DNA of 64,000 bases from a virus (lineage: Duplodnaviria > Heunggongvirae > Uroviricota > Caudoviricetes), in the IMG/VR virus record IMGVR_UViG_2703718815_000003; one strand, written 5' to 3'. A program made the translations under genes and the position numbers. Positions 1,316 through 55,638 of the stretch are shown here, one piece after another. The notes beneath the pieces are model-generated. The model was not told the DNA's origin. It made no database searches and was given only the letters and a program-made list of their open reading frames with translations. Position 1 is the stretch's first letter, and every line of letters starts with the position of its first letter.

Positions 1316-1345
1316 ATAACAAATTGTTTTCTTGTTGGTGTTAAT
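1316..1345 (-). promoter_or_regulatory. class I palindromic motif (AACAAaTTGTT core + conserved GTTGGTGTTAATTATCG)
   Basis: Member of 13-copy family AAACAAsTTGTTT, always 15-70 nt upstream of a minus-strand start. Confidence 0.5.
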
Positions 1346-1500
1346 TATCGTTGTACGAATAAGGCGTCAAAGTGGAAAGTTGCGGTAGCCGGACGGGAAC
1401 AGGTGGGTTTGTCGGTTGCCTGGAGGTAAGAGGTTGGTGTTTTTAGCCTGCGGGAAACAGGATGGTCATTTAAGGCCACCAGCATTGGTGGCCTTAATCT

Positions 1501-1782
1501 TTAGTGGAGCAGACCGATGTCGATGGTATCCCCTGAATCATCCACACGGATCATCAGCATGGCAAAGGCGTTTAGTGGATAGCTTGCGTGCCATTCAGGG
1601 AAGCGGTCATCTCGCATGAAGTCGGCAATGTCGTAAACGCATCCCTCAAAGTGGAAGAATCGCGTGCTTACCTGCTCGTCATAATCCACATGATCCATTT
1701 CTTGCTGTTCTGTTTCCGGCAAGTCCAGCCATGATTCAAGGAATACATTTTGTGCTTTAGGGGTAATGGTGAAATCAGTCAT
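1501..1782 (-). CDS. hypothetical protein (93 aa)
   Basis: Track ORF 1501..1914 trimmed to ATG preceded by GAGGA; longer version would overlap class I motif. Confidence 0.5.
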   Translation of the reverse strand: MTDFTITPKAQNVFLESWLDLPETEQQEMDHVDYDEQVSTRFFHFEGCVYDIADFMRDDRFPEWHASYPLNAFAMLMIRVDDSGDTIDIGLLH

Positions 1783-1801
1783 GAGCATATCCTCACTGCG
1801 T

Positions 1802-1834
1802 AAACATATTGTTTTCTTGTTGGTGTAATTATCG
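1802..1834 (-). promoter_or_regulatory. class I palindromic motif
   Basis: aaacatattgttttcttgttggtgtaattatcg. Confidence 0.5.
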
Positions 1835-2117
1835 CAGTGTAGATAAGGCATAAAAGAAGTTAATACAGGCTGAATACACAAGAAAGGTTCTGGAAGTTGA
1901 TAGCCAGGTTTCAAACTAACCTTCGGTTATTAAAAGTCATTTAAGACCACCAATGCTGGTGGCCTTAATAATTATCGCCCGATTACGCTAAGGATCTTTT
2001 CCTCAACTGATTTGTTGTTGCGACTAAACTGCCTTGCGTATCTGATGACAGAAGAGGCGTTTCGCTTTCTGACCATCTCGGCTCTCTCCTTCAGGCGTTT
2101 CTTGAAATCGCCCATAT

Positions 2118-2492
2118 TTACCACCAGGCGCAGAAGGTCAGTCTGTTATTGTGAAAGTCGTGGTTCTTAATCAGATCTTCCACAAGCTCTTTCAACTCCC
2201 CCACATCATGCCAGTAACCTTCATCGTACTCCTGACTGCCGAAGAAAAAACCTTCCCGGGTAGGCAAGTACTCTTCGCAATTACTTTCGTTTATGTGCAT
2301 CAAATGAGCCTTCAGAAAACAAATGTCATTCATCGTTAATTCTAAAAGCTCACAATTTTCGACTTCACCTACGTTGCGCTCCATCCACCCAACGAGCGCA
2401 TTGAACTTACGGAAGTAAGCAACCTGCTTTCTGGATGCCTCGTTATTCAGATCGTTTTTAGGCTGTGTCTCGATATAGATATCAAGTCCCAT
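2118..2492 (-). CDS. hypothetical protein (124 aa)
   Basis: Track ORF (GTG start at 2534) trimmed to ATG with AAGGAAA RBS. Confidence 0.5.
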   Translation of the reverse strand: MGLDIYIETQPKNDLNNEASRKQVAYFRKFNALVGWMERNVGEVENCELLELTMNDICFLKAHLMHINESNCEEYLPTREGFFFGSQEYDEGYWHDVGELKELVEDLIKNHDFHNNRLTFCAWW

Positions 2493-2550
2493 GATGGTTT
2501 CCTTATTAAGTTGCTTCAGTGAAATCATTTTCACAAATCAGATAAGGCAG

Positions 2551-2566
2551 AAAACAAATTGTTATC
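2551..2566 (-). promoter_or_regulatory. class I palindromic motif
   Basis: aaaacaaattgttatc. Confidence 0.4.
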
Positions 2567-2577
2567 GGGCATAAGAA

Positions 2578-2606
2578 AATGGCGCGGTTTACGCGCCATT
2601 CAAAGA
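2578..2606 (-). terminator. rho-independent terminator
   Basis: ggcgcg...cgcgcc stem with T-run on minus strand, downstream of 2610..3005. Confidence 0.5.
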
Positions 2607-2609
2607 GGA

Positions 2610-3005
2610 TTAAGCGAATACGCTTTCAGGGATTAAGGTGTCAGCAGGAATGCCAGAGGTAATGCGCAGGCCGTACTGACCAATCCAGGTAGTGTTGGTA
2701 TTCAGGTTGGAGGCGAATACGGTGTTAACCATATTCATCATGGTTTCAAACACCTCTTCATCAACCTGGCGGAAGTAGTTCTCGATTTTCAGCAGCAGCG
2801 GGTCAGTTGCATCGAGAATGGACTGGTATTGAGTCGCGTACTCGCCGCCGGAGGCATCACCTTTACGCACGATCGTACTGGCCTGGACTTCGGCACCAGT
2901 TTCGGTGTTGTGCGTAACAACGGTGATTTTTGCCACATTCTTACCTTCGGCGGTTTCAGAGGCATAGTAAACATCAACTGTCAGTTTTTCGCGTTTAACG
3001 GTCAT
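2610..3005 (-). CDS. hypothetical protein (131 aa)
   Basis: Track ORF trimmed to ATG (MTVKREKL...) preceded by GGAGAG. Confidence 0.5.
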   Translation of the reverse strand: MTVKREKLTVDVYYASETAEGKNVAKITVVTHNTETGAEVQASTIVRKGDASGGEYATQYQSILDATDPLLLKIENYFRQVDEEVFETMMNMVNTVFASNLNTNTTWIGQYGLRITSGIPADTLIPESVFA

Positions 3006-3044
3006 TTCACTCTCCGTAGTGTTTTGGTTATTTTTATATTCTAT

Positions 3045-3064
3045 GATAGTAAGTATGTACTTAC
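3045..3064. promoter_or_regulatory. class II palindromic motif (TAAGTA..TACTTA core)
   Basis: gatagtaagtatgtacttac; family of about 15 AT-rich palindromes upstream of genes. Confidence 0.45.
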
Positions 3065-3131
3065 AATACAAAAAAGCCCCGTAAGGATGGCGGGGCTGTC
3101 GTACTGTCGACTAATTGCCACTTGCACATTA

Positions 3132-3443
3132 TCAGGCTATTGCCATCACTGATGCTCTCTGAATCTCTTGCTGGGCCACGCGGTTAACTTCCATCAAAGC
3201 CAGTTCGAGCTGATGTTCCGGCCACATTCTTTGAAATGCCACCCAGCCTTTTCCACGCTGGCGACGAACATTCATTACATAACGAGTAAAGGTGTTTTTA
3301 TCGAAAGATACCGCTGTTTCACGGAACAGACGAATAGAGGTTCCATTGGCAACGATGTCCAGCAAAGTTAATTGAGCAACCAGCGCAGGCTTCTCTTTTC
3401 TCTTCTGGTCTTTGTCCAGACCAAGAACCAATGATTTTTTCAT
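3132..3443 (-). CDS. hypothetical protein (103 aa)
   Basis: Track ORF trimmed to ATG (MKKSLVLG...) with GGAG RBS. Confidence 0.5.
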   Translation of the reverse strand: MKKSLVLGLDKDQKRKEKPALVAQLTLLDIVANGTSIRLFRETAVSFDKNTFTRYVMNVRRQRGKGWVAFQRMWPEHQLELALMEVNRVAQQEIQRASVMAIA

Positions 3444-3454
3444 TACAACTCCGT

Positions 3455-3470
3455 AAACAACTTGTTTTCT
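3455..3470 (-). promoter_or_regulatory. class I palindromic motif
   Basis: aaacaacttgttttct. Confidence 0.5.
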
Positions 3471-3596
3471 CAATGGCGTAAATAATACCAGTAAGAAAAC
3501 GGCTACAAAGCATATTGATCAGGCGCATGAGCGATATGCAGGTTCTTCCCTGCGGCTATAGAGAAATTAAGCCAGCAATGCTGGCTTTGGTTGGGG

Positions 3597-3926
3597 TTAC
3601 TCGAATACTTCAAGAAACTCCTGAACGTCCCAATGCTGGACGAGGTGAAGATAGACCTTAGAAATCACGTCATTTTCGCTATCGCATGTGAAGTAGTACT
3701 TCTGGCTGCGGTTGTATGTGTCCACACAAAATTCGCTCATATCCATAAAGTCAGCATCTTCACCCATGTCGCAAATCATCAAAGCAGGTGCGTCATCACG
3801 AGTCATCAGCTCAAGCACCCACCGCGAATTGATCAGAGTGGAAGACCAACCTTCTAACTCATAAAACTGATCAAACTCTTTTTGAGTTAATTTCTTGATT
3901 TGGTTGATGTCGATATTTGCAAACAT
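3597..3926 (-). CDS. hypothetical acidic protein (109 aa)
   Basis: Track ORF trimmed to ATG (MFANIDIN...) with AAGGA RBS; D/E-rich. Confidence 0.5.
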   Translation of the reverse strand: MFANIDINQIKKLTQKEFDQFYELEGWSSTLINSRWVLELMTRDDAPALMICDMGEDADFMDMSEFCVDTYNRSQKYYFTCDSENDVISKVYLHLVQHWDVQEFLEVFE

Positions 3927-3938
3927 AAAGCAATCCTT

Positions 3939-3971
3939 AAACAACTTGTTTTCTCGTTGGTGTTATTATCG
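3939..3971 (-). promoter_or_regulatory. class I palindromic motif
   Basis: aaacaacttgttttctcgttggtgttattatcg. Confidence 0.5.
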
Positions 3972-4559: not shown

Positions 4560-5330
4560 TCTCAACCTCTCTATAGGCGTTAATGCTCACTCCTTCCAGA
4601 ATGTTCTATACGGCGACTATTTCTGTTGGTGAATTGGGTGTGTTGTTCTCTCTGTCGGTGTATGTGGTTTCGTTCGTTTTGCGGTGGTTCTTCTATGGGG
4701 TGTTCTCGTCGTTTTGGTGATTGTTCTTCTCCGTGTATGGAGTAATGGCAGGTGGGCGATTCCTTTCGTTGTTGTGTTTGAGTTGTTTGTCTGGAGTGTG
4801 TGAAAGGCTTTTGTAGTTATTCGTGTATTGGGTAATGGCATTTCCCGTGATTGTTATGTTTCGTGTCTTTTGGGATTGAGAGAATCCTTGCGGTTACAGG
4901 CTTCGTTGGGGTTTCAGTGATTCTGGTGTTTCTTCGCTGTTTGGGGAATGGCGTGTCGTGGGTATCGCGCGTATGAATGTTTTCGGATTGCCTGTGAAAG
5001 TTAGGTTGGTTGTCCGGTAGCCTGGGGAGAAGAGGTGGGTTGTTTTTGGAAATGGCATGTGTGTTATTTAGTTGTTTTGTTATGCCTGAAAATAAGTTGT
5101 TTATATGGTTGTGTAACGCAACGGGAGCGATTTTGAGCGTGTGTTTTTGTTGGTAGTGTGTTGGGTCGTCTGTGGTGAAAATTGGACGCTGTGGCGCTGT
5201 CTGCTGCGTAGAGTTGCGGGTATAAGAAGTGATGTGTGAAAACGTCAATTTTTTAGACCAAATCGGGTGAAAGCGTTGACGTTTCGTTGATCTGTTATTT
5301 AGTTGTTTTCTTATTTGTATAAACAACCAT
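4560..5330. other. GT-rich strand-skewed ORF-poor tract
   Basis: Plus strand almost devoid of C with many GG/GGG runs; only low-complexity T/H/K/P-rich minus-strand ORFs. Confidence 0.5.
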
Positions 5331-6171: not shown

Positions 6172-6216
6172 TTCTTTGATAATCCTAAAAACAAACTACC
6201 AATGCTTTAATATCTG

Positions 6217-6516
6217 TTACCAGTTCCAGCACTCAAGCCCTTCAACGACCGGCGCACCACAATCAAAATGTACAGAGTCAAAGCCTACATCAAGTACTTT
6301 CTGAATGTTAGCAATCGCGCCTTCGGATATACCATATCGACGCAAGTCGTCTTTCCAGACATCATTCTGTAACCCGGCGTGAACAATACAACCGCCATCA
6401 ATTTGTGAAACCCAATCCAGCTCATTGCTTGCGATCATGAATCGGCGAGCATCTTCCTCTGATGTATGAGATGAACTGATCAATGCCACCTGGTAGGCTT
6501 GGGTAATGTTCAACAT
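6217..6516 (-). CDS. hypothetical protein (99 aa)
   Basis: Track ORF; two class I motifs upstream. Confidence 0.5.
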   Translation of the reverse strand: MLNITQAYQVALISSSHTSEEDARRFMIASNELDWVSQIDGGCIVHAGLQNDVWKDDLRRYGISEGAIANIQKVLDVGFDSVHFDCGAPVVEGLECWNW

Positions 6517-6528: not shown

Positions 6529-6545
6529 AAAACAAGTTGTTTTCT
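6529..6545 (-). promoter_or_regulatory. class I palindromic motif
   Basis: aaaacaagttgttttct. Confidence 0.5.
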
Positions 6546-6578
6546 TATGTGGCTTATTATCTCAATCAACAAAAGGTA

Positions 6579-6595
6579 GAAAACAAATTGTTTTA
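6579..6595 (-). promoter_or_regulatory. class I palindromic motif
   Basis: gaaaacaaattgtttta preceded by aaaaggtag (same extension as copy near 15015). Confidence 0.45.
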
Positions 6596-18968: not shown

Positions 18969-19538
18969 TCAATTAGAGCTTTGAAAGACTTTGTGTGGTT
19001 GTGTTGCGAGGTTATGTCGATGGCTTAACTCACGCATCATGTCTTCAAGCCGACTCTTTGTGTCGTCGAGTTGGTCGGCCATTGCTCCCAAAAGCTGACG
19101 AACGGCCATCGGATCATCGCTGTTTAGTGATGGCATTTTATAACCCGCCTGAGAAGACATAAGATTGAACGCAGACATCAACATCGTTAGAGAGGATTTA
19201 AGCCCAGCAATTTCACGATCTTTGCTGGCAATAATCGCCTCACTCTTGTTAGTGTCATCAGTTCGTTGAGTCTCGCTCACCATATCCAAAGTCGCCTGCA
19301 ACTTATCAGCGCGCTCTTTTTCAGCAAGATAATGAACACCGAAATGATGTGCTAAAGCTACAACCTGAGTTGGCTCTTCAAAGGTGGACTCAAAATTAAG
19401 TGCTGTAACCACTCTCTCAAATATGGAAACGTCTTCTATTCCTCGAAGAATGGCTAACATTTTGACCAGTTCATTAGCATCCATTTCTTCGAATAAGGCG
19501 TTTTGTTCATCAGCTATCGCTTTGCATTTCTTGCACAT
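18969..19538 (-). CDS. hypothetical protein (189 aa)
   Basis: Track ORF; class I motif upstream. Confidence 0.5.
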   Translation of the reverse strand: MCKKCKAIADEQNALFEEMDANELVKMLAILRGIEDVSIFERVVTALNFESTFEEPTQVVALAHHFGVHYLAEKERADKLQATLDMVSETQRTDDTNKSEAIIASKDREIAGLKSSLTMLMSAFNLMSSQAGYKMPSLNSDDPMAVRQLLGAMADQLDDTKSRLEDMMRELSHRHNLATQPHKVFQSSN

Positions 19539-19557
19539 GTGTTTTTCCTAATGCTTA

Positions 19558-19573
19558 AACAAGTTGTTTTCTT
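19558..19573 (-). promoter_or_regulatory. class I palindromic motif
   Basis: aaacaagttgttttct. Confidence 0.5.
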
Positions 19574-19654
19574 ATTGGCTTTATTGTGATGTGGCATAAA
19601 AGGGGAGCAAGCTAAACGTAAAGGTGCAAACTCTCTATTTCGGTCAACGAAACA

Positions 19655-19677: not shown

Positions 19678-19836
19678 TTAACACGTTGCTTTACGGACTA
19701 GCGGATAAGCGAAGTAGATCGCCAGACCAATGAGGACGCCATCAGAAATGACAGACATCATCTTTCCCGTAAAATCCACCAACACCGCCATCACCAGAAG
19801 AGCAATGACGATCACAAGCCGGAATCTCTCAAGCAT
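19678..19836 (-). CDS. small membrane protein (52 aa)
   Basis: MLERFRLVIVIALLVMAVLVDF...; start overlaps stop of upstream gene (TAATG); not in 60-aa track. Confidence 0.45.
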   Translation of the reverse strand: MLERFRLVIVIALLVMAVLVDFTGKMMSVISDGVLIGLAIYFAYPLVRKATC

Positions 19837-20261
19837 TAGAGATAAGCATCCAGTGACAACTGAAGCGCCTGGGCGATCTTTTTCAGTGCCTGCTCTTCTT
19901 GTTCACCAATGCCGTCCTGATCGGCAATATCAAGGCACAGACACAGAACATCGACCGCCTCTGGAGTACCCGCAATATCAGACAGCTCACGAATAGCCTG
20001 TGCATTAGCAGAACGAGGGGACGCTTCGTAACGAGCACGGATATTGGCGCTCATTTGGGCAATTTCACCAGCAAACGGAGAAAACGCAGGCAGAGCTGCA
20101 ATTGTCTTCTCAAGAATGGCAATTTCTTTTGCGTCACATGTGCCGTCGGCATAGGAGATCATGTACGCGCCCCACACGGTGGCCTCAACCGCATCACGGT
20201 TCTCCATTTTTTTGACTTCGATAACAGCTTTACGAGTTTTCTTTTTGAAGAAACCTAACAT
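19836..20261 (-). CDS. TerB-like domain protein (141 aa), tentative
   Basis: Two repeats of the type ..DG..D..E...L.. (YADGTCDAKEIAILE / IADQDGIGEQEEQAL). Confidence 0.4.
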   Translation of the reverse strand: MLGFFKKKTRKAVIEVKKMENRDAVEATVWGAYMISYADGTCDAKEIAILEKTIAALPAFSPFAGEIAQMSANIRARYEASPRSANAQAIRELSDIAGTPEAVDVLCLCLDIADQDGIGEQEEQALKKIAQALQLSLDAYL

Positions 20262-20284: not shown

Positions 20285-20301
20285 AAAACAAGTTGTTTTC
20301 T
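20285..20301 (-). promoter_or_regulatory. class I palindromic motif
   Basis: aaaacaagttgttttct. Confidence 0.5.
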
Positions 20302-28386: not shown

Positions 28387-29256
28387 TTATTTTTTGATCA
28401 TTCCGTACATTGCTGAGGCTTTAGCTTGCTCAACAAAGGAGGATAAATCGACATCACTATAGGTTGGAGACTTCAGAATCTTTCCATCGGAAATTCGAAA
28501 ACCGATCATCTTATCGGTGCCATCAGCATGGCGGAATCCCAGATCTGAAGAGTCGTATTTGCAGTTGGCCACAGCCTGGCGACGTTCCTCAACATCAGCA
28601 GGCCATAATTTTGTCATGTTAGACCGATGAATTTCGCCAACCAGCTCGACGACATTGATACCGAGGAAATCAGCCAGTCGATAAGTCATCATGCACGCCA
28701 CATAGATTTTGTTCATTACACGGCGCAGTTCCTGAATCAGCTCAGAATCCTTAACAGTCTTCTTCTCAAGTTTATCTGCCAGCTCTTCGAGCATACATGA
28801 CGCCTCACGAGCTTCCTGAAATGGCATTGCCATATCATCGAAAACAGTGTTACCGGGCACAAAAATTGTCTGCATAAAGCGATCAATGCTCTGTTCCTGC
28901 GTGTAATAGGTCATGCCGGTAGAAATACCACCTTTGATGGAGACCATCGTACCAACACCAACGTATAAAAAGTCGGCCATTGCATCCAGCAGTTGCTCAA
29001 TATCCCCATTCATTGCGGCTGGAATACCTTCCACTACAGCTTCTTCATGAATCAGGCTTGCACGGAGACGAAGCAGCTCTGGTGTCGGCATAACGCGTCT
29101 CGGATGCTGGAAGAGTTCATGAAACTGATCGACCATCTTGTAAATACTTTCAGTGGCTACACCATGGCCTTCATGCAACTCATATGGTTCTGGCTTAAAT
29201 CCAATGAGTCGATCGGTGGCAAGTTTCAGGTGGTCAGTCAGTTTGGTAAAGTTCAT
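28387..29256 (-). CDS. putative all-alpha NTP pyrophosphohydrolase-like protein (MazG/dUTPase-like), tentative
   Basis: Track ORF trimmed to ATG (MNFTKLTD...) with AAGGAAC RBS; 289 aa. Confidence 0.35.
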   Translation of the reverse strand: MNFTKLTDHLKLATDRLIGFKPEPYELHEGHGVATESIYKMVDQFHELFQHPRRVMPTPELLRLRASLIHEEAVVEGIPAAMNGDIEQLLDAMADFLYVGVGTMVSIKGGISTGMTYYTQEQSIDRFMQTIFVPGNTVFDDMAMPFQEAREASCMLEELADKLEKKTVKDSELIQELRRVMNKIYVACMMTYRLADFLGINVVELVGEIHRSNMTKLWPADVEERRQAVANCKYDSSDLGFRHADGTDKMIGFRISDGKILKSPTYSDVDLSSFVEQAKASAMYGMIKK

Positions 29257-29333: not shown

Positions 29334-30476
29334 TTACAGGTCTGCAAACTGGCTTAGAGAAGCCTTGTCCACGGTAGAATCGATCTGACCTACCAGATAT
29401 GTGCTTTGCTCTGCCTCTTGTGGTGCAATTTGCAGTGTGTCGGTTAACAACCACTTGTTCATCCAGACCAGCGGATCTGTGGTAACTTCTGGAAATAAAG
29501 CCTTCAGGCCAAGACGATTCATAGCCAGATTGGTGCGGTATTTTACATAGGTCTTCAGAATATCCGCGTTTAAACCAATCATCGAACCGTCTTTGAAGAG
29601 ATAGTCTGCCCAGTTCATTTCTTGTTCGGCGACTGATTTCATGGTGTCGTAAATGACGTTTTCTTCATCAGCAGCAATCTCTTTCCACAATAAACCTTCG
29701 CGACCGGTACGCATGAAGCGGATCATGCGTTCAGTTCCTTCGCAATGCAGAGCTTCATCACGGGCAATAAAGCGCATAATTTTGGTGTTACCCTCAAGCA
29801 ACTTCCGTTCGCCAAAGGCAAACGTACATGCAAAACTTACATAGAAACGGATCGCCTCAAGCGCATTAATGGACACCAACGTGCGGAAAAGCTGACGGTG
29901 CAAAGGGTATGGCTCCCAGCCATATTCATTTACGTACAGACGTTCAAACTCTTTCTCACCTAACGACTGGCGCTCGCAGGTCATCCCATAAAGCCTGTCA
30001 TATTCAGCAGAGATACTGATCGCTCGGTTGATGATTTCTTCATCCGTAACAATACCGTCAAAAACAATGCTCGGATCGTCCACCATGCCACGAATAATGT
30101 GGGTGTAGCTGCGGCTATGGATAGTCTCAGAGAAAGACCATGTTTCAACCCACGTTTCCAGTTCAGGAATAGAGATAAGCGGCAGCAGCGTTGCATTTGG
30201 GCTACGTCCCTGAACTGAATCGAGTAACGTTTGATAACGGAGATTGCTCAGAAAAATGTGACGTTCGTGGTCCCGCAGCTTCGTGTTGAAGTCGATACGA
30301 TCGCTCGAAATATCAACTTCTTCCGGCCGCCAGAAGAAAGACAATTGACGTTCAATCAACTTTTCAAAATCACGGTATTTTTGCTGATCGTAACGTGCCA
30401 CGTTGACAGATTGTCCGAGGAACATAGGCTCTTTGGTTGCATCATTAGCACCCAAACGGAACGTTGAATATGACAT
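29334..30476 (-). CDS. nrdB: ribonucleotide reductase class Ia beta subunit
   Basis: 380 aa; collinear with E. coli NrdB ([20 protein letters not shown]..., C-terminal YLVGQIDS). Confidence 0.95.
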
Positions 30477-30507: not shown

Positions 30508-30523
30508 AAACAAGTTGTTATCT
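30508..30523 (-). promoter_or_regulatory. class I palindromic motif
   Basis: aaacaagttgttatct between nrdA terminator and nrdB start. Confidence 0.5.
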
Positions 30524-38494: not shown

Positions 38495-38580
38495 ATTCAC
38501 ATATCCACAGGATAGATCCTAATAAAGAGATCCATAGATAGATCCTTGTATAGATCAAATAAGATCCCCGATCGCTGTAA
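38495..38580. promoter_or_regulatory. origin-like region: DnaA-box-like site + GATC cluster
   Basis: atatccaca (8/9 to TTATCCACA) followed by 6 GATC sites in about 70 bp. Confidence 0.55.
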
Positions 38581-38610
38581 GCCGCGCCACGACTGGTCTG
38601 AAGCCATGTT

Positions 38611-38720
38611 CATGTATGCTGTCAGCGGTAATTGATAGTCTGTCAGCGGTTCACCGTATGCTGCCAACTGTTTTTGGTATTCTGTCAGCGGCAAATCAAG
38701 TATGCTGTCAGCGGTTGAAT
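38611..38720. repeat. iteron array upstream of repA (about 5 copies TATGCTGTCAGCGGT)
   Basis: Direct repeats, same orientation, ending about 15 nt before repA ATG. Confidence 0.75.
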
Positions 38721-38735
38721 GACAAAGGTGTCCAC

Positions 38736-39830
38736 ATGTCCACAAAAAATAAAAAAGGTAAAAATAACAAAGAAGTAGAAGATAATCTCGACAACTTTGA
38801 AGAAGGTTCCCTTGAATTGTACACAGGGGAACTTGTCCCTAATAGCAACAATACAGTCCAACCAATTGCGTTGATGCGGCTGGGATTGTTCGTGCCCACG
38901 CTCAAGGGGACAAAATACAGCAAGCGTAACAAGCCAAATGAGATCGATGCTTCAAAGGAGCTTGTTCAGCTCGAAGTAGCCCGTTCTGAAGGCTATTCCG
39001 ATATCAAGATAACCGGTCCTCGTCTCGACATGGATCATGATTTCAAAACGTGGGTGGGCGTTGTGCGTTCGCTGGCAGAATACGGCGAACCTAACGGTCG
39101 TGTCGAGTTAAGCATCACGAAATTTGCGAAGTTTTGTGGCTATCCATCGTCACAGATCCGCAAAACACTCCGCGACCGGCTTACAAACAGTCTTTTGAAG
39201 ATCATGCGTACAACTCTGTCTTTCCAGAGAACGTATGAAGAAAAGAACGTCGACGGCTCTAACAAGATCTCGCTTCTGATGGTGCACCTCATCAATAGCG
39301 TGGACTACAACGAGCAGAAAGATACGGTGGTGTTCTATGCAGAACCGAAGCTGGCCGAACTATATCGCTTTGACCATAAGGTTCTTTTGCAGTTAAAGGT
39401 TATCAATAAGCTACCACGCAAAGAAACAGCACAGGCTCTGTACACCTTCATCGAAAGTCTTCCAACCAAGCCTGCGCCGGTATCGCTTGCTCGATTGCGT
39501 GCGCGACTCAATTTGAGTAGCAGGAATGTCAGCTCGCAGAATCAGACTATACGCAACGGCTTAAAAGCTCTCCAAGATTTGGGTTATCTCGAATACAGCG
39601 AGATTAAGCGAGGGCGGTCGATCTATATCCAGATTCACAGCCGCAATCCAAAACTCAAAGTCGCACCGCCAAAACCTGAAGACATCGAACCCAAAAAACT
39701 AGATGAGAAAGCTGGGGAAATTGATGCCAAACAGAACATTATCAACAAGATAACCGAACTTTCGCAGAATTTGACGCCTGAAAATATCAAGATGATTGAG
39801 ATCCTTTCCAATAGTCTCAAACTGCTTTGA
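38736..39830 (+). CDS. repA: RepA-type iteron-binding replication initiator
   Basis: Track ORF trimmed to ATG (MSTKNKKGK...) with AAAGGTG RBS; 364 aa; flanked by iterons; motif NSNNTVQPIALMRLGLFVP. Confidence 0.7.
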   Translation: MSTKNKKGKNNKEVEDNLDNFEEGSLELYTGELVPNSNNTVQPIALMRLGLFVPTLKGTKYSKRNKPNEIDASKELVQLEVARSEGYSDIKITGPRLDMDHDFKTWVGVVRSLAEYGEPNGRVELSITKFAKFCGYPSSQIRKTLRDRLTNSLLKIMRTTLSFQRTYEEKNVDGSNKISLLMVHLINSVDYNEQKDTVVFYAEPKLAELYRFDHKVLLQLKVINKLPRKETAQALYTFIESLPTKPAPVSLARLRARLNLSSRNVSSQNQTIRNGLKALQDLGYLEYSEIKRGRSIYIQIHSRNPKLKVAPPKPEDIEPKKLDEKAGEIDAKQNIINKITELSQNLTPENIKMIEILSNSLKLL

Positions 39831-40365
39831 TATGCTGTCAGCGGTGAAATGTATGCTATCAGCGGCTATTTTTCTGAAAAGTATGCTGTAAACGGTTAAA
39901 TATATGCTACCAGCGGTATAGTGAGATGAACGTATGCTGTGGGCGGTAAATCATCTATCACCACTCAATGCTCTGTCATACCTCCCCAGTGGTTACTAAC
40001 CTCGAAGAGTGCATTCCATATAGGTTTGCGCTCACTAACATTCTATTGCTATTGCGCTGATTGCTTGTAGTGAAAGGCATTTATTGCCTGCTGCTCCCTG
40101 ATAGAACGTATGCTGTCAGCGGTGTTTTATTGAGGAATTTTTGTTTGGATATGCTATCAGCGGTAATTAATGGTATATGTCAGACCTTCGTATGCTGCCA
40201 GCGGTAATTTTGTTCTGGTTATACCCATACCGGTACACATTATTCATGCAATGTCTTAAGTATGCTGTCAGCGGTAAAAAATCGAGTAAAGTATGCTGTG
40301 AGCGGTGAGATAGACTCTCGATATGCTATCAGCGGTAGTTGATTGTGTATGCTGTCAGCGGTGAC
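39831..40365. repeat. iteron array downstream of repA (about 12 copies TATGCT(G/A)(T/C)(C/G)AGCGGT)
   Basis: Same 15-bp core as upstream array, irregular 15-35 bp spacing, same orientation. Confidence 0.75.
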
Positions 40366-40409
40366 GACTATGAAATATGACTGCGGAACGTGCCGCAGTC
40401 AGTTTGCAT

Positions 40410-40622
40410 TTAGTGTATTTTCTTTAACAGACCCCAAAGTGTTCCGGCTTTTGTAGTCAGTTTTCCTGTTTCTGGATCGTACATACGCCATTCACGCCGC
40501 TGGTGGACGATATACCCATCTTCACGTTCCAGACGCTCAAGAATGCCAGGCTGCTTGAAACCCTTAGCACGCCAGTAGCCGCTTGTTTTCTCGATTTCCA
40601 GACCTGCCAGTGTTAATGCCAT
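40410..40622 (-). CDS. hypothetical protein (70 aa)
   Basis: Track ORF; ATGA coupling. Confidence 0.4.
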   Translation of the reverse strand: MALTLAGLEIEKTSGYWRAKGFKQPGILERLEREDGYIVHQRREWRMYDPETGKLTTKAGTLWGLLKKIH

Positions 40623-41503: not shown

Positions 41504-41929
41504 TCAATCTTCTTGTTTAGGGAAAAACTGTTCAATAACTCTGTCAACGGCTGTGTCTATATGGAGTAGATGCCACACAACCATATCTTTGCTTCCCATG
41601 CCTTGTGTGAATATCACGTCATACTTACGCCATGCGCAGTGGAACCAATATGCTGAGTCATCAATTGGTAAATCCTCTCCCGCCTCTTTGAAGTATTTCA
41701 GCAGCATTGCCTGCTCTGCCGTTGGCGTTGGACCTATTTCCTGAGCGTACATACGGATGAATCGCTGCCAGTCTGTCTCCTCGGGGGTTGGATCTGGTGG
41801 GGTCATTTCTGCGATAGCGTTTCGTAGTTGATGCGCCCAATCAGGTTCAGGAAAGCCTTTTGCTGCTTCATCATCAATAACATCCAGAGCCACGTTTGCG
41901 GCATCGTAGAGTTTCTTAATAGCTGTCAT
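41504..41929 (-). CDS. hypothetical protein (141 aa)
   Basis: Track ORF; class I motif upstream. Confidence 0.5.
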   Translation of the reverse strand: MTAIKKLYDAANVALDVIDDEAAKGFPEPDWAHQLRNAIAEMTPPDPTPEETDWQRFIRMYAQEIGPTPTAEQAMLLKYFKEAGEDLPIDDSAYWFHCAWRKYDVIFTQGMGSKDMVVWHLLHIDTAVDRVIEQFFPKQED

Positions 41930-41945: not shown

Positions 41946-41961
41946 AAACAAATTATTTTCT
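41946..41961 (-). promoter_or_regulatory. class I palindromic motif
   Basis: aaacaaattattttct. Confidence 0.45.
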
Positions 41962-47907: not shown

Positions 47908-48339
47908 TCAACGGGGAGTAATAAAGCGTTCGGAGCCTAATCGCTCCAATTCAACAATGGCCATCTTCGACGCCTGAACGATCATGTCTCGGCGATGCGA
48001 AAAGGCGGCGACAGCATGTTTGTATATGTCTGCGATGTGCCGTGCTTCATCCAACTTCTGCCGTTTAGACAGATACTGTGGGTTTGTTTTAACCTTAGCG
48101 TCCAGTACAGATTCGTTGAACTTAATGCCGTTCATACTCAAGTTCTTACGCTCTGTGTCGTATAGCTTTGCTTCAACAGCTTCAAGGTTAAGTTTTGCCT
48201 CTGCGACACTTCTTTCTGCATGAGCGAGTTTTGAGCCATATTCCATCAACAGGCGGGGTTGTCTACGCCAGACTTCTTCCAGATTGTCTCGGTCAAACTC
48301 GAGATCAGACATTATTTTCTCGTAAATATCGGTGATCAT
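47908..48339 (-). CDS. hypothetical protein (143 aa); possible UvsY-like recombination mediator
   Basis: Track ORF; helical; weak pattern similarity to T4 UvsY and synteny with SSB/RecA. Confidence 0.3.
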   Translation of the reverse strand: MITDIYEKIMSDLEFDRDNLEEVWRRQPRLLMEYGSKLAHAERSVAEAKLNLEAVEAKLYDTERKNLSMNGIKFNESVLDAKVKTNPQYLSKRQKLDEARHIADIYKHAVAAFSHRRDMIVQASKMAIVELERLGSERFITPR

Positions 48340-48464
48340 GTGCTTTCCTTTTTACTTATCATCTTATATTGATTATATCATTGTGATGATAAGGCAAGGA
48401 GTTCGAGGATAGGGGATATGAGGGGATAAGAGAAAACATGGCCATAGAGGCCATGTTTATTGGA

Positions 48465-51400
48465 TCACGACTTAATAGTTTCTGCTACGTCGGCTAATAT
48501 CGCTTCTAGTCGTTCTCCCTCTTCAGGTCTGAAGTAAAGAATGTTGGGGTTAAACCCGTAAAAGACTGTAACGTCAAGGTCTGGAAGATACTCCTTCCTA
48601 CCGACTAAATCGGATGGCTTGTTTTTGTTGTTAAACAATGCCGTTGCCCGACTGCCACACGTCAGCACATAGGTCGGACGTACCAGATTGATCTCTTCAC
48701 GCATAAAGTCGGTGAACTGGCCGATCTCGTCTTTGGTGTAGTCCTTTTCTTTGTCTTTCACCTTTTTGCAAACGCCTGTGACATAGAGATCGCCCATGCG
48801 CAAATCTCCAGCCGTCAACAGCTTGGCCTTAAAATCGTCGTATCCGTTCTCCATGAAGTAACCGGTTCGAGCATCATTGCCGTTTGCATTGTCCAGAATG
48901 ATCATGATTTTCGGCTTAATACCAATGCTGGGGCGGATTAGTTCATCACCTAAGCCCATTTCAGCCGCCATCCGTGTCATGAGTGCGTTAATTTCAGCCG
49001 ATCGTTTGGGGTTCATCTCAAACGGACGTGAGGCTTTAACTGCGTCTATGACAAGGTTTCCCATCAATTCTGCCTGGTCGCGGAGACGCTCTGGATCAGT
49101 TGCTGGCAGACTGCCAGGCTCGATGGCTGCAAATGCCCCTACTTTTTGCAGCGATTCGCGAACTCGACTATTACAGGCACGTTTCTCGACAGCTTCTTCG
49201 AATTGCGCAAGTGACTCGAATTTGCCGCCAACCTTTTCTCGCGCTCTCATGATGGCCTGGCAGCCATTCTCAGAACACCCCTTCACAGCAGAGAAGGGCG
49301 CATACAGCACCTGGCTGCCATCTTCAAGCGTGCGGATCTCGATTCGGTTTGATGACACGTTAACGTCTGGTGGCAATACGCGAATACCATAGGTCAGCGC
49401 ATCTTTAACCAGCCCCTGGTGTTTATCTTCGCCAAGAATAGTGAGAGCAGCAGCGAAAAACTCTGCGGGGTAATGAGTTTTCAACCACATAGATTGATAA
49501 CTGATTAAGGAGTAAGCAACAGAGTGTGATTTGTTGAACTGGTAGGCACCATTTTTTTCGAATGCGGTCCAGATCTCCTTCGCTTTCATCTCTGATAGCC
49601 CTGGATGTGACGCTGTAACACGTACTGCGTTTATAGGTAGTGTTGCTCCGTGCTCAAGTGCCTCTTCGACAGTTTTCAGAGTTCCGTCTTCGCATTTAAA
49701 ATGTTCCGCACGGTGAATGCGCTGCGTAGTGCCATCTTCCAGTTCAACGTCTATCCAGCCAGCTTGAGCCTGAACGATGAACTTCTCGCCCATGCTCTTC
49801 ATTTTTTCCATGTCCTTTTTGCCGATCGCTTTACGAACACCGTCAGCTTCAGCCATTGTGAAGCCAGCAAGCAATCGAGTCGCGTTCATCGTCTGTTCCT
49901 GATAGAGAATCACGCCATTTGTTTCTGCGGTAAGTTCATCAAGAACGGGGTGTAATGATTCCGGCGTCATAAAGCCTTTGGCGACAGAAACATAATCATC
50001 CAACATGCCTGACTGAATTGGTCCCGGCCGGAAGAGCGCAGTCGTAGCAACAACCGTTTTAAAGCTCATTGGCTCAATTCCACCACCTAAATCTTTAAGC
50101 AGCTTGCGCATTGGGCCTGATTCAAGCTGGAAAACACCTTGAGTGTACCCAGCAGCAAAACCATCCAGCACCTTGCGATCTTCAAGAGAAATGGCATCAA
50201 GATTGATATCTTCACCTGTGTTCTCTTTTATGTAGCGTTTTGCACTATCGAGCAAATCGAGAGTTGCCAGACCGAGTACGTCCAGCTTAATTAGGCCCAT
50301 AGCCTCGCAGTAACGCTTGTCAAATGCGATACAACGCGCGTCACCACGGCGTTCAACCGGTGTACGTTCTGTCAGAGGAACACCTGCTACGATCATCCCT
50401 GCCGCATGTCTACCAAAGCCACGCATAAGGCTTTGTAACTTGCAGGCTGCATTGAATGCATCAGGATATTTTGTTGCGTATTTGTCGAGACTTGCCAGTT
50501 GTTCGCGCAGTTCTTCCAATGGAAGGCTATCATCCTCGACGTTCTTCAGTTCTTTTGATACCGCCATATCTGCGGACTCCACACCATAAATACGAGCGGT
50601 GTCACGTAGTGCAGAGGCTGCGCCCAGATATGTGAAGTTCGGAATACCCGCAACGTAATCTTCGCCGTAGCGTTCATTCAGATACTCGATCACTTCATGG
50701 CGACGTGCCTGGCTGAAGTCCAAATCCGCATCCGGCAAGTCGAGACGCTCAGGGTTGATGAAACGTTCAAACAGAAGACCGTGACGGATTGGGTCGACGT
50801 TGGTTATGCCTATGCACCATGCCACCAAAGAGCCAGCAGAGGAACCACGACCAGGCCCAACGGGAATGCCAGTTTCACGACTATGATTCATCAGATCGCG
50901 CACCATCAGGAAGTAACCACAGAATCCCAGGCGAGTCAGCGTGTCCATTTCGTACTTTAGCCGCTCAACATAAACCCTGTTCTCAGAAGCCGGTGGTGTG
51001 TAGCCAAACTCTTTTGTGGTAAGACGTTTACGCAGCCCAGCAACGGCCAGTTTCATCAGAGTTGCAGGCTCGTCGTCTGCCATCTTTGGCAGTGCTGGTG
51101 GCAATTCATGCCAGCGCCATGTGCAGGCATCGATAATGGTATCCTGCGTTGTTGAGGCCATTGCAGCTGTTACCGGCACATCCATGCGAACGGAGAAGGC
51201 TTTAAGCGCCTCAAGGAGATGGCGGCGACCATTGACGGCGTTATCTCGCTGGTGGGGGATACGCAGACGATGCGGCTGGTCGATTTTGATGTTGTTCGTA
51301 ACCATGTGCGCAATGTCTTTAATGTCTGCATCGTCGATCGATTCGTAATAAGCGGGATAGAACGCCACTGGCTCTATTTTCAATGCGCTGGCGACTTTCA

Positions 51401-52161: not shown

Positions 52162-52163
52162 GA

Positions 52164-53399
52164 TTAACCAAATATTTTTTGAACAACTTCACGAGCCGCT
52201 TGCGCAGAAGCTGAAGGGAGTTTGTTAATGAAAGAACGCTCAATACCTGTCACAAAGTCGCCTCGCATCATTCCAATCTTGGCCGACAACAAAAGCTCAC
52301 GAGGCCCAATTGGCTGGCTGATAAGGTGTTCTTCATATCCATCGCGAACGATACCGGCAAACTTAACCATCTTTTCAGCGTATTCATCCACGATGCCGGC
52401 ATTTATCAACATGTTGATCTCTGCCTCTTTGCTCATGTATTTCACATTCGAAACGATGCCAAAACGTGAAAAGTTCGCGGCGTTCTGGATGTTTGTACCC
52501 TGGTACAAGCCGGTTTCATCACCAGAACCGTTTGTGTTGCCAGTGCCAATGAAAGCAAACCGTTCATGCGGAGTAATGCGACGCCATTCTGGAGTCGCCT
52601 CTTTGATGACCAACGCTTCACCTTCCAGCACTGGCTGATACACGCCAAGAATCTGTGGAAACGCAAAGTCGTATTCATCCGCGAGGTAAACCCAGCCATG
52701 CTTCATTGCGAGCGCAAGCAAGCCAGGCTCGAAATACGTAGAGCCATCACGCGCCAGAATTTGTCCCGTAACATGAGCCTCTTCCATTGATGCTGTATGT
52801 TGGGCACGGATTAACGGACGATTGAGCAAAGCACATAGTTGTGTAGGCAATGAAGATTTGCCTGTTCCTGCATGACCCCACAAATAGCCAGGTATGCCAA
52901 GTTCAAGCATCATGAAAATGTCTTTGATCAGTTCGAAGTCGCCATATACGTATCCCTTCTTCACTTCTGGAACGAACTCTGGAAACGGCGTATTGACGTT
53001 GACGCTAACCATGAGCGGCGTCCCACGTTTTGTTCCGAGTTCTTTCACCGTTACATTTAGCAGTTCGTGAGCTGCGACCAGATCTGTCTTGTACTCAACT
53101 GTGCCTGTGTAGCCTGGGCTACTGGTCACGCCAGATGATTTGGCCATTTCGCTTTTTTGCTCGGCACGTTTAGCTTGAATTGCATCAAGTGCCTTTTTCG
53201 ATAGCGTTGGCTCATCTGGAAACTGTGTTGTGTACATTTTCAGTACGGTGTCAGGATCGGCATCTTTTACTGACTCAGGAATGCCCTCGCAATTACCATT
53301 GGCTACATGGGACTTAAAATAGTGAAATGATTTTCCGCACCACTTGCAAACAAGGTAATCAGAAGGATTTTTTTCATTTTGCAGTGCAGTAGTAGTCAT
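52164..53399 (-). CDS. AAA+ ATPase, CobS/MoxR-like
   Basis: 411 aa; Walker A GHAGTGKSS; Walker B-like VYLADEYD; N-terminal CKWCGKSFHY Zn-finger-like. Confidence 0.6.
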   Translation of the reverse strand: MTTTALQNEKNPSDYLVCKWCGKSFHYFKSHVANGNCEGIPESVKDADPDTVLKMYTTQFPDEPTLSKKALDAIQAKRAEQKSEMAKSSGVTSSPGYTGTVEYKTDLVAAHELLNVTVKELGTKRGTPLMVSVNVNTPFPEFVPEVKKGYVYGDFELIKDIFMMLELGIPGYLWGHAGTGKSSLPTQLCALLNRPLIRAQHTASMEEAHVTGQILARDGSTYFEPGLLALAMKHGWVYLADEYDFAFPQILGVYQPVLEGEALVIKEATPEWRRITPHERFAFIGTGNTNGSGDETGLYQGTNIQNAANFSRFGIVSNVKYMSKEAEINMLINAGIVDEYAEKMVKFAGIVRDGYEEHLISQPIGPRELLLSAKIGMMRGDFVTGIERSFINKLPSASAQAAREVVQKIFG

Positions 53400-53455
53400 G
53401 CGTTTTTCCTTTGTTTTCTAATGAGCGTTCAACTTCTTATATAAATATATCATTA

Positions 53456-53479
53456 TCTATCGTAAGTGGTTACTTATCG
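53456..53479. promoter_or_regulatory. class II palindromic motif
   Basis: ctatcgtaagtggttacttatcg. Confidence 0.45.
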
Positions 53480-53494
53480 TTAAGGCTGTTTTGT

Positions 53495-55603
53495 TCACTT
53501 TAAAATGATACGAGATAGTTCAGTAACTACAGATGAACCAAGACTATCAACGCTCGTTACCAGGGCATGATTTGAGTAAAATCTCTCCGGTGCATCAGTC
53601 ATGATGCCAATTGCCATCAAATCAATGTCAGTCTGCGTTTCAATTTGCTTCGCAACTGAACGCAAATGAGCGTCAAAACCTCTCCCAACAGCCCACGGCG
53701 CGCCATCACTCAGAACAAGCATGATCTTCCTGTCCTCCAAGCGACCGGAAAATAACGATGCAAGGCTGGCTATGCTTTCACCATCCACGTTATTAAGAAG
53801 TGGGAATGTGTAGCCTACGCACCCCATACGTGAGCGAACTTCGCGAGAATTTGCTTTTTCATTCCAATTTTTGATGATAGGTAGCATTAAAGATTCAAAG
53901 CGAGAGAACTCATATTTGATAGCCTTAAGTTCTCCTGCTGCCATATGACTGCCAAATGTAGTGAAGCCGGTGATAATGTTGGGAACATTTATTCGATCAA
54001 GTGCATCGGCGATGGTATATGCACTTGCAAGAGCTAGTTTTATCGTTTCGCCACTCATTGAACCCGATAAATCAATCACTTGTTGAACACAGGCGTTAAC
54101 GGCTTTAGATTCTTCTTTTTTACGAAACACGCGATCATCATTCATTGTTAATCTGTAGATACTTGAACCATGAATGCGCCCCCGACGCTGGCCAGGTATA
54201 AACTGAACTCTGTTTCTGCTTGCTATTGCACGTTCCAGGTCTTTTGCCAGCGTCGACGAAACACCTGACGAAAGGTGCTTTTCAATATATTTGTCGAAGA
54301 GTTGGTTGCCTTCAGGAACGATGCGATAACGGCTGATTGGATATCCACCTAAATCAATATCGGAGAATGTTTTAATAAGCCGTTTGATATGGGCTTCTGC
54401 CTGATCAATCGAGCCGATGAAGTCGTATGAGCGATTGTATGGCCTGTATTCGCTTTTCGAGCTTTCTGTTAACTCGCTTTTAATCGTTTCGGATAGCGCA
54501 TCTTCTGTCATGCCTCCGACTTCATCTTCCATGCTATCCAACTCCTCTAAAGCCTCTTCCAGACTCATTTTTGACGGAGTTGGAATGTCTGAAGAGCCGT
54601 CTTCTGTCGTTTTTCTTTTTTCGTGGTCAGCGGTTAATGATTCTGACGCCGCGTTATCAGAAGCATCAGAATCTGATACCGCTTTATCATTTTCTGTATC
54701 ATCGAATATTGTTTCTGATGATTCAGGATTATCTGAATCATCACTGTCGTTATTATCATTTTTGTGCTTACTATGTGACTCTGATTTAATAGATTTGTGA
54801 TTATCTAACGATGAGGGTGTCTCATGATCTTCGTTGTCTTCATTGTTTTCTCCAGAGGCATCCGTCTGGTCAGCGTCTGAAGGATCGGAAGTTTTTCCCG
54901 GAGCTGACTCCTTACCTTTGCTTTCACTTTCAGTGTCTTTGAGGATCTTAGCTATGGTCGCAGCCACCTTTACACAATCCTCGGTGCAAGACATGTTACG
55001 CACGGCCACATCGATACCATGTTCTTTTAATAATGAAATTGGTTTCTCAATGACAGGCCAATATTCATCCATGAAATCTACGAACGGTGCTTGGCCATCC
55101 CAGGCTCTTACAACCGGACAGAGAAAGAAGTTTAGAACAAGCGCGCGCTGATCTTTGCCACAATAAGCAATAGCCTCTGAAGCCTTTGGTTTAAAGACTT
55201 TTTCGATTATAAGGCGCTGAGTTGCCATCAGATTACGTCCTGTTCCGTTAAAGACCTGACCCATTTTTCGCTCGATGAACACGTCTTCTAAGGCATTCCA
55301 TAGCGACCAGGAAGGAACGCGTCCTTTTTCTCTCATTTTGTTGGACACACGAATATCGGTAAACAAAATGTGAGCAACCTCATGATCGAGAAATCCGCGC
55401 ACAGCATTCATCAATGCCGGTGTTGCGTTATCCGGGATTGATGGGATGTTTACGAGAATTGGCTCTCCATCATCGTTATAGCGTACATAAGCGTCGTCCC
55501 CTCGTTCTGCAACAGGGATGTTTTTACCTGAAAGGAGAGCGACTACTCGTTTTACACTGTCACGGAAGTCCTGAACCTCTTTGATGGAACGTTTTTTAGA
55601 CAT
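53495..55603 (-). CDS. VWA-domain protein, CobT-like, with long acidic S/D/E-rich linker
   Basis: 702 aa; C-terminal MIDAS DLSGSMSG; about 150-aa acidic low-complexity middle region. Confidence 0.65.
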   Translation of the reverse strand: MSKKRSIKEVQDFRDSVKRVVALLSGKNIPVAERGDDAYVRYNDDGEPILVNIPSIPDNATPALMNAVRGFLDHEVAHILFTDIRVSNKMREKGRVPSWSLWNALEDVFIERKMGQVFNGTGRNLMATQRLIIEKVFKPKASEAIAYCGKDQRALVLNFFLCPVVRAWDGQAPFVDFMDEYWPVIEKPISLLKEHGIDVAVRNMSCTEDCVKVAATIAKILKDTESESKGKESAPGKTSDPSDADQTDASGENNEDNEDHETPSSLDNHKSIKSESHSKHKNDNNDSDDSDNPESSETIFDDTENDKAVSDSDASDNAASESLTADHEKRKTTEDGSSDIPTPSKMSLEEALEELDSMEDEVGGMTEDALSETIKSELTESSKSEYRPYNRSYDFIGSIDQAEAHIKRLIKTFSDIDLGGYPISRYRIVPEGNQLFDKYIEKHLSSGVSSTLAKDLERAIASRNRVQFIPGQRRGRIHGSSIYRLTMNDDRVFRKKEESKAVNACVQQVIDLSGSMSGETIKLALASAYTIADALDRINVPNIITGFTTFGSHMAAGELKAIKYEFSRFESLMLPIIKNWNEKANSREVRSRMGCVGYTFPLLNNVDGESIASLASLFSGRLEDRKIMLVLSDGAPWAVGRGFDAHLRSVAKQIETQTDIDLMAIGIMTDAPERFYSNHALVTSVDSLGSSVVTELSRIILK

Positions 55604-55620
55604 GGCTAATCCTTTGTTAT

Positions 55621-55638
55621 GAAAACAAATTATTTACT
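55621..55638 (-). promoter_or_regulatory. class I palindromic motif
   Basis: gaaaacaaattatttact. Confidence 0.45.

Follow-up and report, generated by a model that had tools for sequence, protein, structure and literature searches.

A 13-base palindrome at extended -10 promoters of an SSU5-like phage-plasmid is a candidate operator of a dispersed regulon

The window analysed here, a 64,000-nt stretch of Caudoviricetes DNA (IMG/VR record IMGVR_UViG_2703718815_000003), belongs to an SSU5-like phage-plasmid and carries scattered copies of the 13-base palindrome AAACAAnTTGTTT, whose centre base is free. It shared ~97.6% identity with Escherichia phage Cyrano (the pLF82 phage-plasmid) and ~80% with Salmonella phage SSU5. 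Gene names were taken from the Cyrano annotation, and the minus strand of the window is the sense strand for nearly all genes. The window aligned onto Cyrano from 99752 down to ~35255 with a few segments replaced. The segments 11533-12026, 13236-14708, 38602-40410, 48318-49788, and 57799-59675 had no megablast match to Cyrano; these segments include the replication-initiator region (open reading frame (ORF) 38616-39830, plus strand), and in Cyrano two of the gaps contain or adjoin the hicAB pair and CYRAN_43, which is very highly expressed. The element is a distinct mosaic relative and not Cyrano itself.

The exact form AAACAANTTGTTT was found six times in the window, compared to 0.01 copies expected from dinucleotide shuffles. 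With up to one mismatch, 14 copies were found (0.50 expected, and at most 3 in any shuffle), which is far above chance; with up to two mismatches there were 18 (6.0 expected). All 13 copies listed by the initial annotation proved real, with true starts no more than 2 nt from the positions given there, and a fourteenth at 5090 was added. Eleven of the 14 lie in the ~9 kb of ORF-free DNA (binomial p ~1.6e-7), where a first-order Markov model of intergenic DNA predicts 0.08. The other copies overlap only over-extended ORF calls or, at 5090, an ORF-poor stretch. The LexA SOS box, with the consensus CTGT-N8-ACAG, was rejected as an identity, as AAACAAnTTGTTT does not fit it. A scan with Rfam at gathering score placed no family over any site and reported only three tRNA genes (60155-60398). 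No description of the exact 13-mers (four forms) turned up in the searchable literature, and neither the Cyrano paper nor a phage-plasmid review describes such a motif.

The copies are arranged in two ways relative to a predicted -10 hexamer, either downstream or upstream of it, and are listed below with their genes, all on the minus strand.

1317-1329: palindrome with one mismatch (sense AAACAATTTGTTA), downstream type, 14 nt past the -10 hexamer GATAAT (1344-1349) and 20 nt ahead of the ATG of gene 814-1296; orthologous sites at SSU5 94525 and pJN2-26 29082
1802-1814: palindrome with one mismatch, downstream type, N13 past TGcGATAAT (-10 at 1828-1833); gene 1501-1788
2552-2564: palindrome with one mismatch, upstream type, behind a terminator-like hairpin and 19 nt ahead of TGtGAAAAT (-10 at 2527-2532); gene 2118-2492/2528
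3455-3467: exact palindrome, downstream type, N14 past TGgTATTAT (-10 at 3482-3487), with the ATG of gene 3132-3443 11 nt beyond
3939-3951: exact palindrome, downstream type, N13 past TGcGATAAT (-10 at 3965-3970); gene 3597-3926
5090-5102: palindrome with one mismatch in a long, ORF-poor, A+C-rich stretch, without clear promoter or gene
6530-6542: exact palindrome, downstream type, centre at ~+14, -10 GATAAT at 6556-6561; gene 6217-6516 (DUF5983)
6581-6593: exact palindrome, upstream type, centre at ~-38 of the same promoter as 6530, 51 bp from it centre to centre
15017-15029: palindrome with one mismatch, upstream type, adjoining a terminator-like hairpin and 19 nt ahead of TGtGAAAAT (-10 at 14992-14997); gene 14487-14942
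19557-19569: exact palindrome, downstream type, N13 past CACAAT (-10 at 19583-19588); gene 18969-19538
20286-20298: exact palindrome with AGA flank, 24 nt ahead of the ATG of the TerB-family gene 19836-20261
30508-30520: palindrome with one mismatch between nrdA and nrdB, 31 nt ahead of the nrdB ATG (29334-30476)
41946-41958: palindrome with one mismatch past a terminator-like hairpin, 16 nt ahead of the ATG of the DUF7238 gene 41504-41929
55623-55635: palindrome with one mismatch, N12 past TACATT (-10 at 55648-55653) and 19 nt ahead of the ATG of the CobT-like gene 53495-55603
6556-6561, minus strand: model -10 hexamer GATAAT between two palindromes, with TGa before it (extended -10); the hexamers given for 1317, 1802, 2552, 3455, 3939, 15017, 19557, and 55623 are its equivalents

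In the downstream class (10 copies) the sense strand reads (TGn)GAtAAT - N13/14 - AGA-AAACAAnTTGTTT, followed by the Shine-Dalgarno sequence and an ATG 11-31 nt beyond the site. Hexamer and spacing were clear in six of these; at 20286, 30508, 41946, and 55623 the -10 element is displaced, weak, or unclear. The upstream class (2552, 6581, 15017, and loosely 5090) reads AAACAAnTTGTTT-TCT, exactly 19 nt, (TGn)GAtAAT. These sites often lie directly behind a terminator-like hairpin, and those with a clear downstream gene are 64-74 nt from its ATG. The AGA/TCT flank always points toward the -10 element, so that one class carries the extended motif in the opposite orientation to the other. Conservation in the flanks was highest at the final T of the hexamer. 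TGn together with a hexamer having A at position 2 and T at position 6 was present at 1802, 2552, 3455, 3939, 6530/6581, 15017, and 55623, in the forms TGnGATAAT, TGnTATTAT, TGnGAAAAT, and TGnTACATT.

From their sequences, the motif promoters are predicted to be of the sigma-70 type, in which the -10 element is extended (TGnGAtAAT) and the -35 element is weak or missing. If the hexamer serves as the -10 element, the downstream palindrome would cover ~+8 to +20 (centre ~+14) and the upstream palindrome about -44 to -32 (centre ~-38), counted from start points that we infer. The palindrome holds a fixed position relative to the core promoter, N13-14 past the -10 element in cassette promoters whose extended -10 is clear, or exactly N19 ahead of it. 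In four genomes, all 15 upstream-type sites were exactly 19 bp from (TGn)GAtAAT, with diverged spacer sequences. One promoter in the window (6530/6581) holds both copies, and the same double arrangement occurs in SSU5 (88319/88370) and in the Klebsiella plasmid KpPF25 p2 (41929/41980). Similarly, the orthologue of site 2552 in Klebsiella pJN2-26 (28539) has a second copy at +51. Decayed partners at +/-51 (up to four mismatches) were far commoner than the 1.3% background.

The copies had been described as always in one orientation and upstream of minus-strand starts. AGA-AAACAAnTTGTTT does run the same way at 10 sites, but the motif, the core of which is itself palindromic, is inverted to AAACAAnTTGTTT-TCT at 2552, 6581, and 15017; at 5090 the flank is TCA and the inversion only loose. 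The tie to minus-strand genes was confirmed as a tie to their promoters, with two fixed positions relative to the -10 element in place of a single upstream one. The proposed longer consensus GATAAT(W)ACACCAAC(R)AGAAAACAAnTTGTTT was matched at 3939 (no mismatch) and 1802 (one mismatch), and site 1317 fits it given a 1-nt insertion.

Sites were counted in related elements with up to one mismatch.

Cyrano, whole genome: 18 sites
Salmonella phage SSU5: 20 sites
Klebsiella pJN2-26: 17 sites
Klebsiella plasmid KpPF25 p2 (distant, pKpn-type): 21 sites, 17 of them exact
Yersinia pestis pMT1: 4 sites

The motif recurred at orthologous promoters in four other lineages (SSU5, pJN2-26, KpPF25 p2, and pMT1), and its hosts comprise elements of E. 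coli, Salmonella, Klebsiella, and Yersinia. KpPF25 p2 was reached via IMG/VR contigs, hardly any of whose DNA can be aligned to the window; the IMG/VR pattern scan otherwise gave mostly single chance matches and SSU5-like contigs. Compared pairwise across 16 orthologous promoters, the arms were 94% identical, the flanks 47-68%, and the centre base 31%. Both arms were equally conserved around a free centre, as in a dimeric operator, and the sequence logos agree. The view of a dyad-symmetric, operator-like element at minus-strand gene promoters, above chance and conserved across genera, is thereby supported. So is the initial annotation's outline of the regulon as small genes of no assigned function plus nrdB and the CobT-like gene. 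A scan of the Cyrano genome extended it beyond the window to the DnaB-like helicase gene (one site), parA (one site), and the terS late operon (two sites before terS).

In the late-operon leader (Cyrano 1-134, SSU5 1-133, pJN2-26 38560-38682, KpPF25 p2 58440-58552, pMT1 28460-28560), a -10 element resembling TAATTA is followed by a single palindrome or by two, spaced 25 bp apart, then by a GC-rich hairpin that carries a T-run and, last, by the terS Shine-Dalgarno sequence. The hairpin looks like an intrinsic terminator, which suggests that late transcription may also need antitermination. The surroundings of site 5090 are unusual as well. Some 700 nt (4600-5330, sense minus) are A+C-rich and G+T-poor on the sense strand without a convincing ORF, and hold, besides the palindrome, the direct repeat AAAACAACTAAATAACA (~5318-5300 and 5080-5062) and repeated TGCCATTWCC words. 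This stretch could correspond to a non-coding RNA or to a single-strand DNA element. The 5090 copy has exact counterparts in similarly long intergenic gaps of SSU5 (90740) and pJN2-26 (25869).

Two distant but still syntenic phage-plasmids, Pectobacterium Drgb1 and Moellerella pW1-b, had no palindrome regulon. Since promoter cassettes of the form CCTTTT-N9-ATAAT...AAGAAA are present in both of them, the palindrome is a separable add-on. In Drgb1, a bona fide hfq gene (48354-48575) lies directly upstream of the DnaB-like helicase gene, at the place that the palindrome-controlled promoter occupies in the motif-bearing lineages.

Several features bear on whether the motif acts as DNA or as RNA. 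Mutations in the arms were strand-symmetric (C4>T four times, G10>A three times) and uncompensated. The RNA hairpin that the motif could form amounts to only -0.7 kcal/mol, and the leaders gave no sign of structured RNA, folding no better than shuffles (z-scores +0.7 to +0.8). Spacing is locked to the -10 element, whereas the Shine-Dalgarno sequence lies anywhere from 1 to ~25 nt away. Ten of the 14 sites are placed like leader elements near the Shine-Dalgarno sequence; four lie upstream of the promoter with inverted flanks, and an RNA element could not work in that manner. Taken together, the perfect dyad, the free centre, the uncompensated symmetric mutations, the inverting flanks, the -10-locked spacing, the weak hairpin, and the missing Rfam match favour recognition of the motif as double-stranded DNA, presumably by a symmetric protein.

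The direction of control was considered with the gene-level counts of a published RNA-seq table of Cyrano lysogens (PMC9928086, S1 Table), in which the background median is 9.8. Thirteen of the 16 genes directly behind a site were at background in the lysogen, despite good extended -10 elements. Extended -10 (TGn) promoters usually need no activator, and repression is therefore the simpler reading of this silence. A missing activator acting from -38 would fit the same silence, and is not our primary reading.

That the palindrome is bound by some global regulator of these medically important elements is almost certain. Our hypothesis is that it is a double-stranded DNA operator through which a global regulator encoded by the element silences a dispersed regulon in the plasmid state, and we give this reading an even chance. 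The regulator would probably be a dimeric, sequence-specific protein of the phage-plasmid. Bound at +14 (13-14 bp past the -10 element), it would block open-complex formation or promoter escape; bound at -38 (19 bp ahead of the -10 element), it would cover the -35 position. The most tightly organised promoters have both sites, 51 bp apart. In this way ~18-21 promoters per genome would be silenced during plasmid life, and would fire together once the regulator is removed. The regulon would comprise accessory small-gene cassettes, nrdB, and the CobT-like and TerB-like genes, and beyond the window the helicase gene, parA, and the terS late operon.

Three proteins were retained as candidate binders of the palindrome.

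40410-40622, minus strand: Cra-like 70-aa protein, candidate factor, found in every motif-bearing lineage tested
61613-61828, minus strand: 71-aa winged-helix-like protein (CYRAN_37 homologue), candidate factor that tracks the motif across lineages
Cyrano 100780-101301, ~1 kb past the left edge of the window: FljA-family protein, candidate (Pfam Flag1_repress, 1e-80 for the Cyrano protein)

For neither of the first two was a counterpart detected in the motif-less Drgb1 and pW1-b. The Cra-like protein has no Pfam domain and was found in 819 plasmids, the 71-aa protein in only 637. The FljA-family protein is encoded by every motif-bearing lineage tested, was found in 835 plasmids, and is expressed in growing lysogens (log2 ~7-8, compared to ~3 for silent genes). 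It was modelled as two tandem Hfq/Sm folds, a two-domain model that no solved structure matched by sequence; sequence searches of the Protein Data Bank with the candidates gave no match. On this modelling, the tandem Hfq/Sm assignment may apply to Salmonella FljA itself. The syntenic FljA-family gene of Drgb1 and pW1-b is only 27% identical (Pfam, hhalign) and has lost the family-invariant WPRDY, RDFF, and DWVERI.

Other proteins were tried and rejected. The CYRAN_123-like protein, encoded upstream of terS, gave a MarR-like winged-helix model (predicted local distance difference test score (pLDDT) 81) with an invariant recognition helix. It was demoted because Drgb1 and pW1-b keep the identical helix and have no palindrome even before terS; its family has no distant members for a co-variation test. 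In the lysogen-expressed, ribbon-helix-helix-like CYRAN_117 the strand residues that face the DNA vary whereas the motif stays constant, and an apparent palindrome inside its ORF was not conserved. Two ParB_N proteins, considered as analogues of KorB of the IncP plasmid RK2, are silent in the lysogen and were likewise demoted because the motif-less relatives keep them at 44-71% identity.

A number of observations weigh against a repressor bound to DNA. The binder is represented by candidates only. Of these, the 61613-61828 protein is missing from a functional relative that keeps the sites, phage PhiR41_1, and its gene was near background in the lysogen. The annotated repressor that is both conserved and expressed in the lysogen is the FljA-like protein, and its modelled tandem Hfq/Sm fold points to binding of RNA and not of DNA. 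Furthermore, parA (50), the helicase gene (21), and CYRAN_111 (26) lie behind sites and yet were 2-5 fold above background. The sites at nrdB (30508), 20286, and 5090 have no convincing -10 element at the expected spacing, and the transcription starts of the motif promoters are themselves deduced from hexamer positions. A standard sigma-70 -35/-10 scan did not call these promoters, because they have almost no -35 element. Finally, a site at -38 on a promoter without -35 element is a classic activator position too.

The main rival to the DNA operator is an FljA model at the RNA level. Here the motif would be an RNA operator in the 5' leader (AGAAAACAAnUUGUUU, just ahead of the ribosome-binding site), and the FljA-family tandem-Hfq protein bound to it would block translation and destabilise the regulon mRNAs in the plasmid state, as FljA does on fliC. 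FljA has been reported to act post-transcriptionally on fliC (PMC2652032), and the Salmonella fliC leader has CAAGTTGT, the palindrome core, beside its Shine-Dalgarno sequence. This model also accounts for the 10 of 14 window sites that fall in a predicted leader, and for an FljA-family gene that accompanies the motif in all bearing lineages, is expressed in the lysogen, and has diverged in the two motif-less relatives. However, the core is missing from the fliC leader of E. coli, a Klebsiella lineage with unchanged motif has an FljA-like protein of only 36% identity, and four of the 14 sites (15 in four genomes) lie upstream of the promoter at exact 19-bp spacing with inverted flanks. The dyad, its mutations, the negligible hairpin, and the fixed distance to the -10 element likewise look like a DNA dimer site, and we consider an RNA operator rather unlikely. 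The wider proposition is that the FljA-family tandem-Hfq protein recognises the palindrome in leader RNA, and perhaps the same sequence in DNA, and thereby silences ~20 operons; we see this as a minority possibility.

An activator or dual-function site is less probable still, and we judge it unlikely. A protein made after induction would turn on the -35-less promoters from -38 (class II-like, cf. Mor/C of phage Mu), and the +14 copies would give later shut-off or fine-tuning. The promoters do lack a -35 element where an activator would stand in, a silent regulon fits a missing activator equally well, and neither the winged-helix-like candidate nor the MarR-like CYRAN_123 rises above background in the lysogen. 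Against this, 10 of the 14 sites are at +14 only, normally a repressing position, TGn extended -10 promoters are usually activator-independent, and the late terS promoter has downstream copies only.

It is very improbable that the copies are simply inherited parts of promoter cassettes, serving as homology patches for the shuffling of accessory genes, or that they are sites of a host factor. The same cassette does stand before unrelated genes (DUF5983 in the window, DUF1380 in SSU5, DUF4942 in KpPF25 p2), the sites cluster in the variable small-gene region, and the motif is identical across hosts. However, selection acts on the 12 arm bases while centre and flanks drift, core genes (terS, parA, the helicase gene, the CobT-like gene, and nrdB) have sites with unrelated flanks, and the cassettes of Drgb1 and pW1-b do without the palindrome. 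To our knowledge, no enterobacterial factor has the specificity of the palindrome, which counts against the host-factor form.

The initial annotation had named a helix-turn-helix (HTH) protein as candidate regulator.

56165-56551, plus strand: XRE-type HTH protein beside the integrase
56120-56133: palindrome GGTAAGTGCTTACC adjoining the HTH gene start; also conserved in pMT1 and pJN2-26

That this protein binds AAACAAnTTGTTT is scarcely credible. In its favour, it is an XRE-type protein that is well expressed in the lysogen (96, compared to the background of 9.8), near-universal in plasmid-state relatives (865 records), and largely conserved in its recognition helix, and SSU5, from which it is missing, might be a lytic deletion variant. 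Against it, SSU5 has 20 conserved sites without the protein, and the motif-less Drgb1 and pW1-b keep it (39-43% identity). The divergent control region of its gene holds nothing closer to the motif than a match with three mismatches, and carries instead a different palindrome, GGTAAGTnCTTACC, conserved in three lineages. For these reasons, the HTH protein probably belongs to a separate switch, as its CI-like immunity repressor, and the palindrome at 56120-56133 is likely the real operator of this protein. At 55940-56040, GGTAAG/CTTACC half-sites flank a TTGATA-N17-TAGTAT promoter that faces a 70-aa gene (55702-55914). This CI/Cro-like arrangement by the integrase (56120-56133 and 55940-56040) is likewise conserved in pMT1 and pJN2-26, whereas SSU5 lacks it.

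With the DNA operator as the preferred reading, the system can be set beside known ones. The C1 repressor of P1 acts on dispersed operators of a ~100-kb phage-plasmid, with the replicative helicase operon and late-gene control among its targets; the operators are asymmetric 17-mers, bound by the monomer, that overlap or follow promoters. One immunity-type regulator, many scattered operators, and helicase and late-gene targets are the common traits, whereas the palindrome described here is a perfect dyad of 13 bp that occupies two set places relative to the promoter. KorB of IncP/RK2 governs a global regulon through 13-bp OB palindromes (TTTAGCSGCTAAA), about a dozen per replicon. OB shares the odd 13-bp length and the free centre, and one class of KorB sites lies ~39-40 bp upstream of the start, compared to -38 here, but TTTAGCSGCTAAA is unlike AAACAAnTTGTTT. 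A KorB-like binder is not supported, because the ParB_N proteins are silent in the lysogen and kept in motif-less relatives. The palindrome system thus resembles P1 C1 operators in function and RK2 OB in form and position, and corresponds to neither of them by sequence or, as far as tested, by protein.

A repressor site past the start and a second across the promoter, roughly helically phased (51 bp here), recall lac O1 (+11) with its auxiliary operators and gal OE/OI. Here, however, the arrangement is spread over the whole regulon of a mobile element, 51 bp is very short, and cooperative binding is what we would suppose. The likeness to FljA and fliC consists in the FljA-family protein of the element, the position of most sites just before the Shine-Dalgarno sequence, and CAAGTTGT in the Salmonella leader; FljA has one known target, whereas there are ~20 sites here, some upstream of promoters and with a DNA-type dyad. 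In T4-type phages, PeSL (promoter-early stem-loop) repeats of promoter and terminator stem-loop flank small ORFs. Similarly, promoter-hairpin modules bracket the small accessory genes of a hyperplastic region here, with the same module before different genes in relatives, but they carry in addition a protein-site-like palindrome on which selection acts separately and which core genes have as well. We file the palindrome as a promoter-linked operator regulon of a mobile element.

The SSU5 supergroup is common in E. coli, Klebsiella, Salmonella, Enterobacter, and Yersinia (~800 plasmids in PLSDB), includes pHCM2 of Salmonella Typhi and pMT1 of Y. pestis, and carries resistance genes. Since a 2024 review lists no regulator for the group, its lysis/lysogeny decision and plasmid-state control appear uncharacterised. 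The motif offers a handle on both, with a predicted operator, a regulon of ~20 promoters, three candidate regulators, and natural negative controls in the relatives that have the promoters but not the motif. The predicted regulon spans partition, helicase, nucleotide metabolism, the late operon, and variable accessory cassettes, and could be used in promoter annotation, in the prediction of cargo silenced in the carrier state, and in the design of induction or curing. If the FljA reading were true, an Sm-fold silencer would preside over replication, partition, late, and accessory operons, including those of pHCM2 and pMT1. In that case the Salmonella FljA protein would represent a domesticated relative of a global phage regulator, and the element might influence the flagellin of its host as well.

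Two further features of the window were recorded. The three tandem tRNA genes at 60155-60398 (minus strand) detected with Rfam match the Asn/Thr/Ser cluster of Cyrano. A stand-alone UmuD-like S24 peptidase gene (10007-10396, minus strand), with no umuC adjoining, was among the most highly expressed genes of the Cyrano lysogen (148, compared to the background of 9.8), and a palindrome-like site with two mismatches lies upstream of it at 10539.

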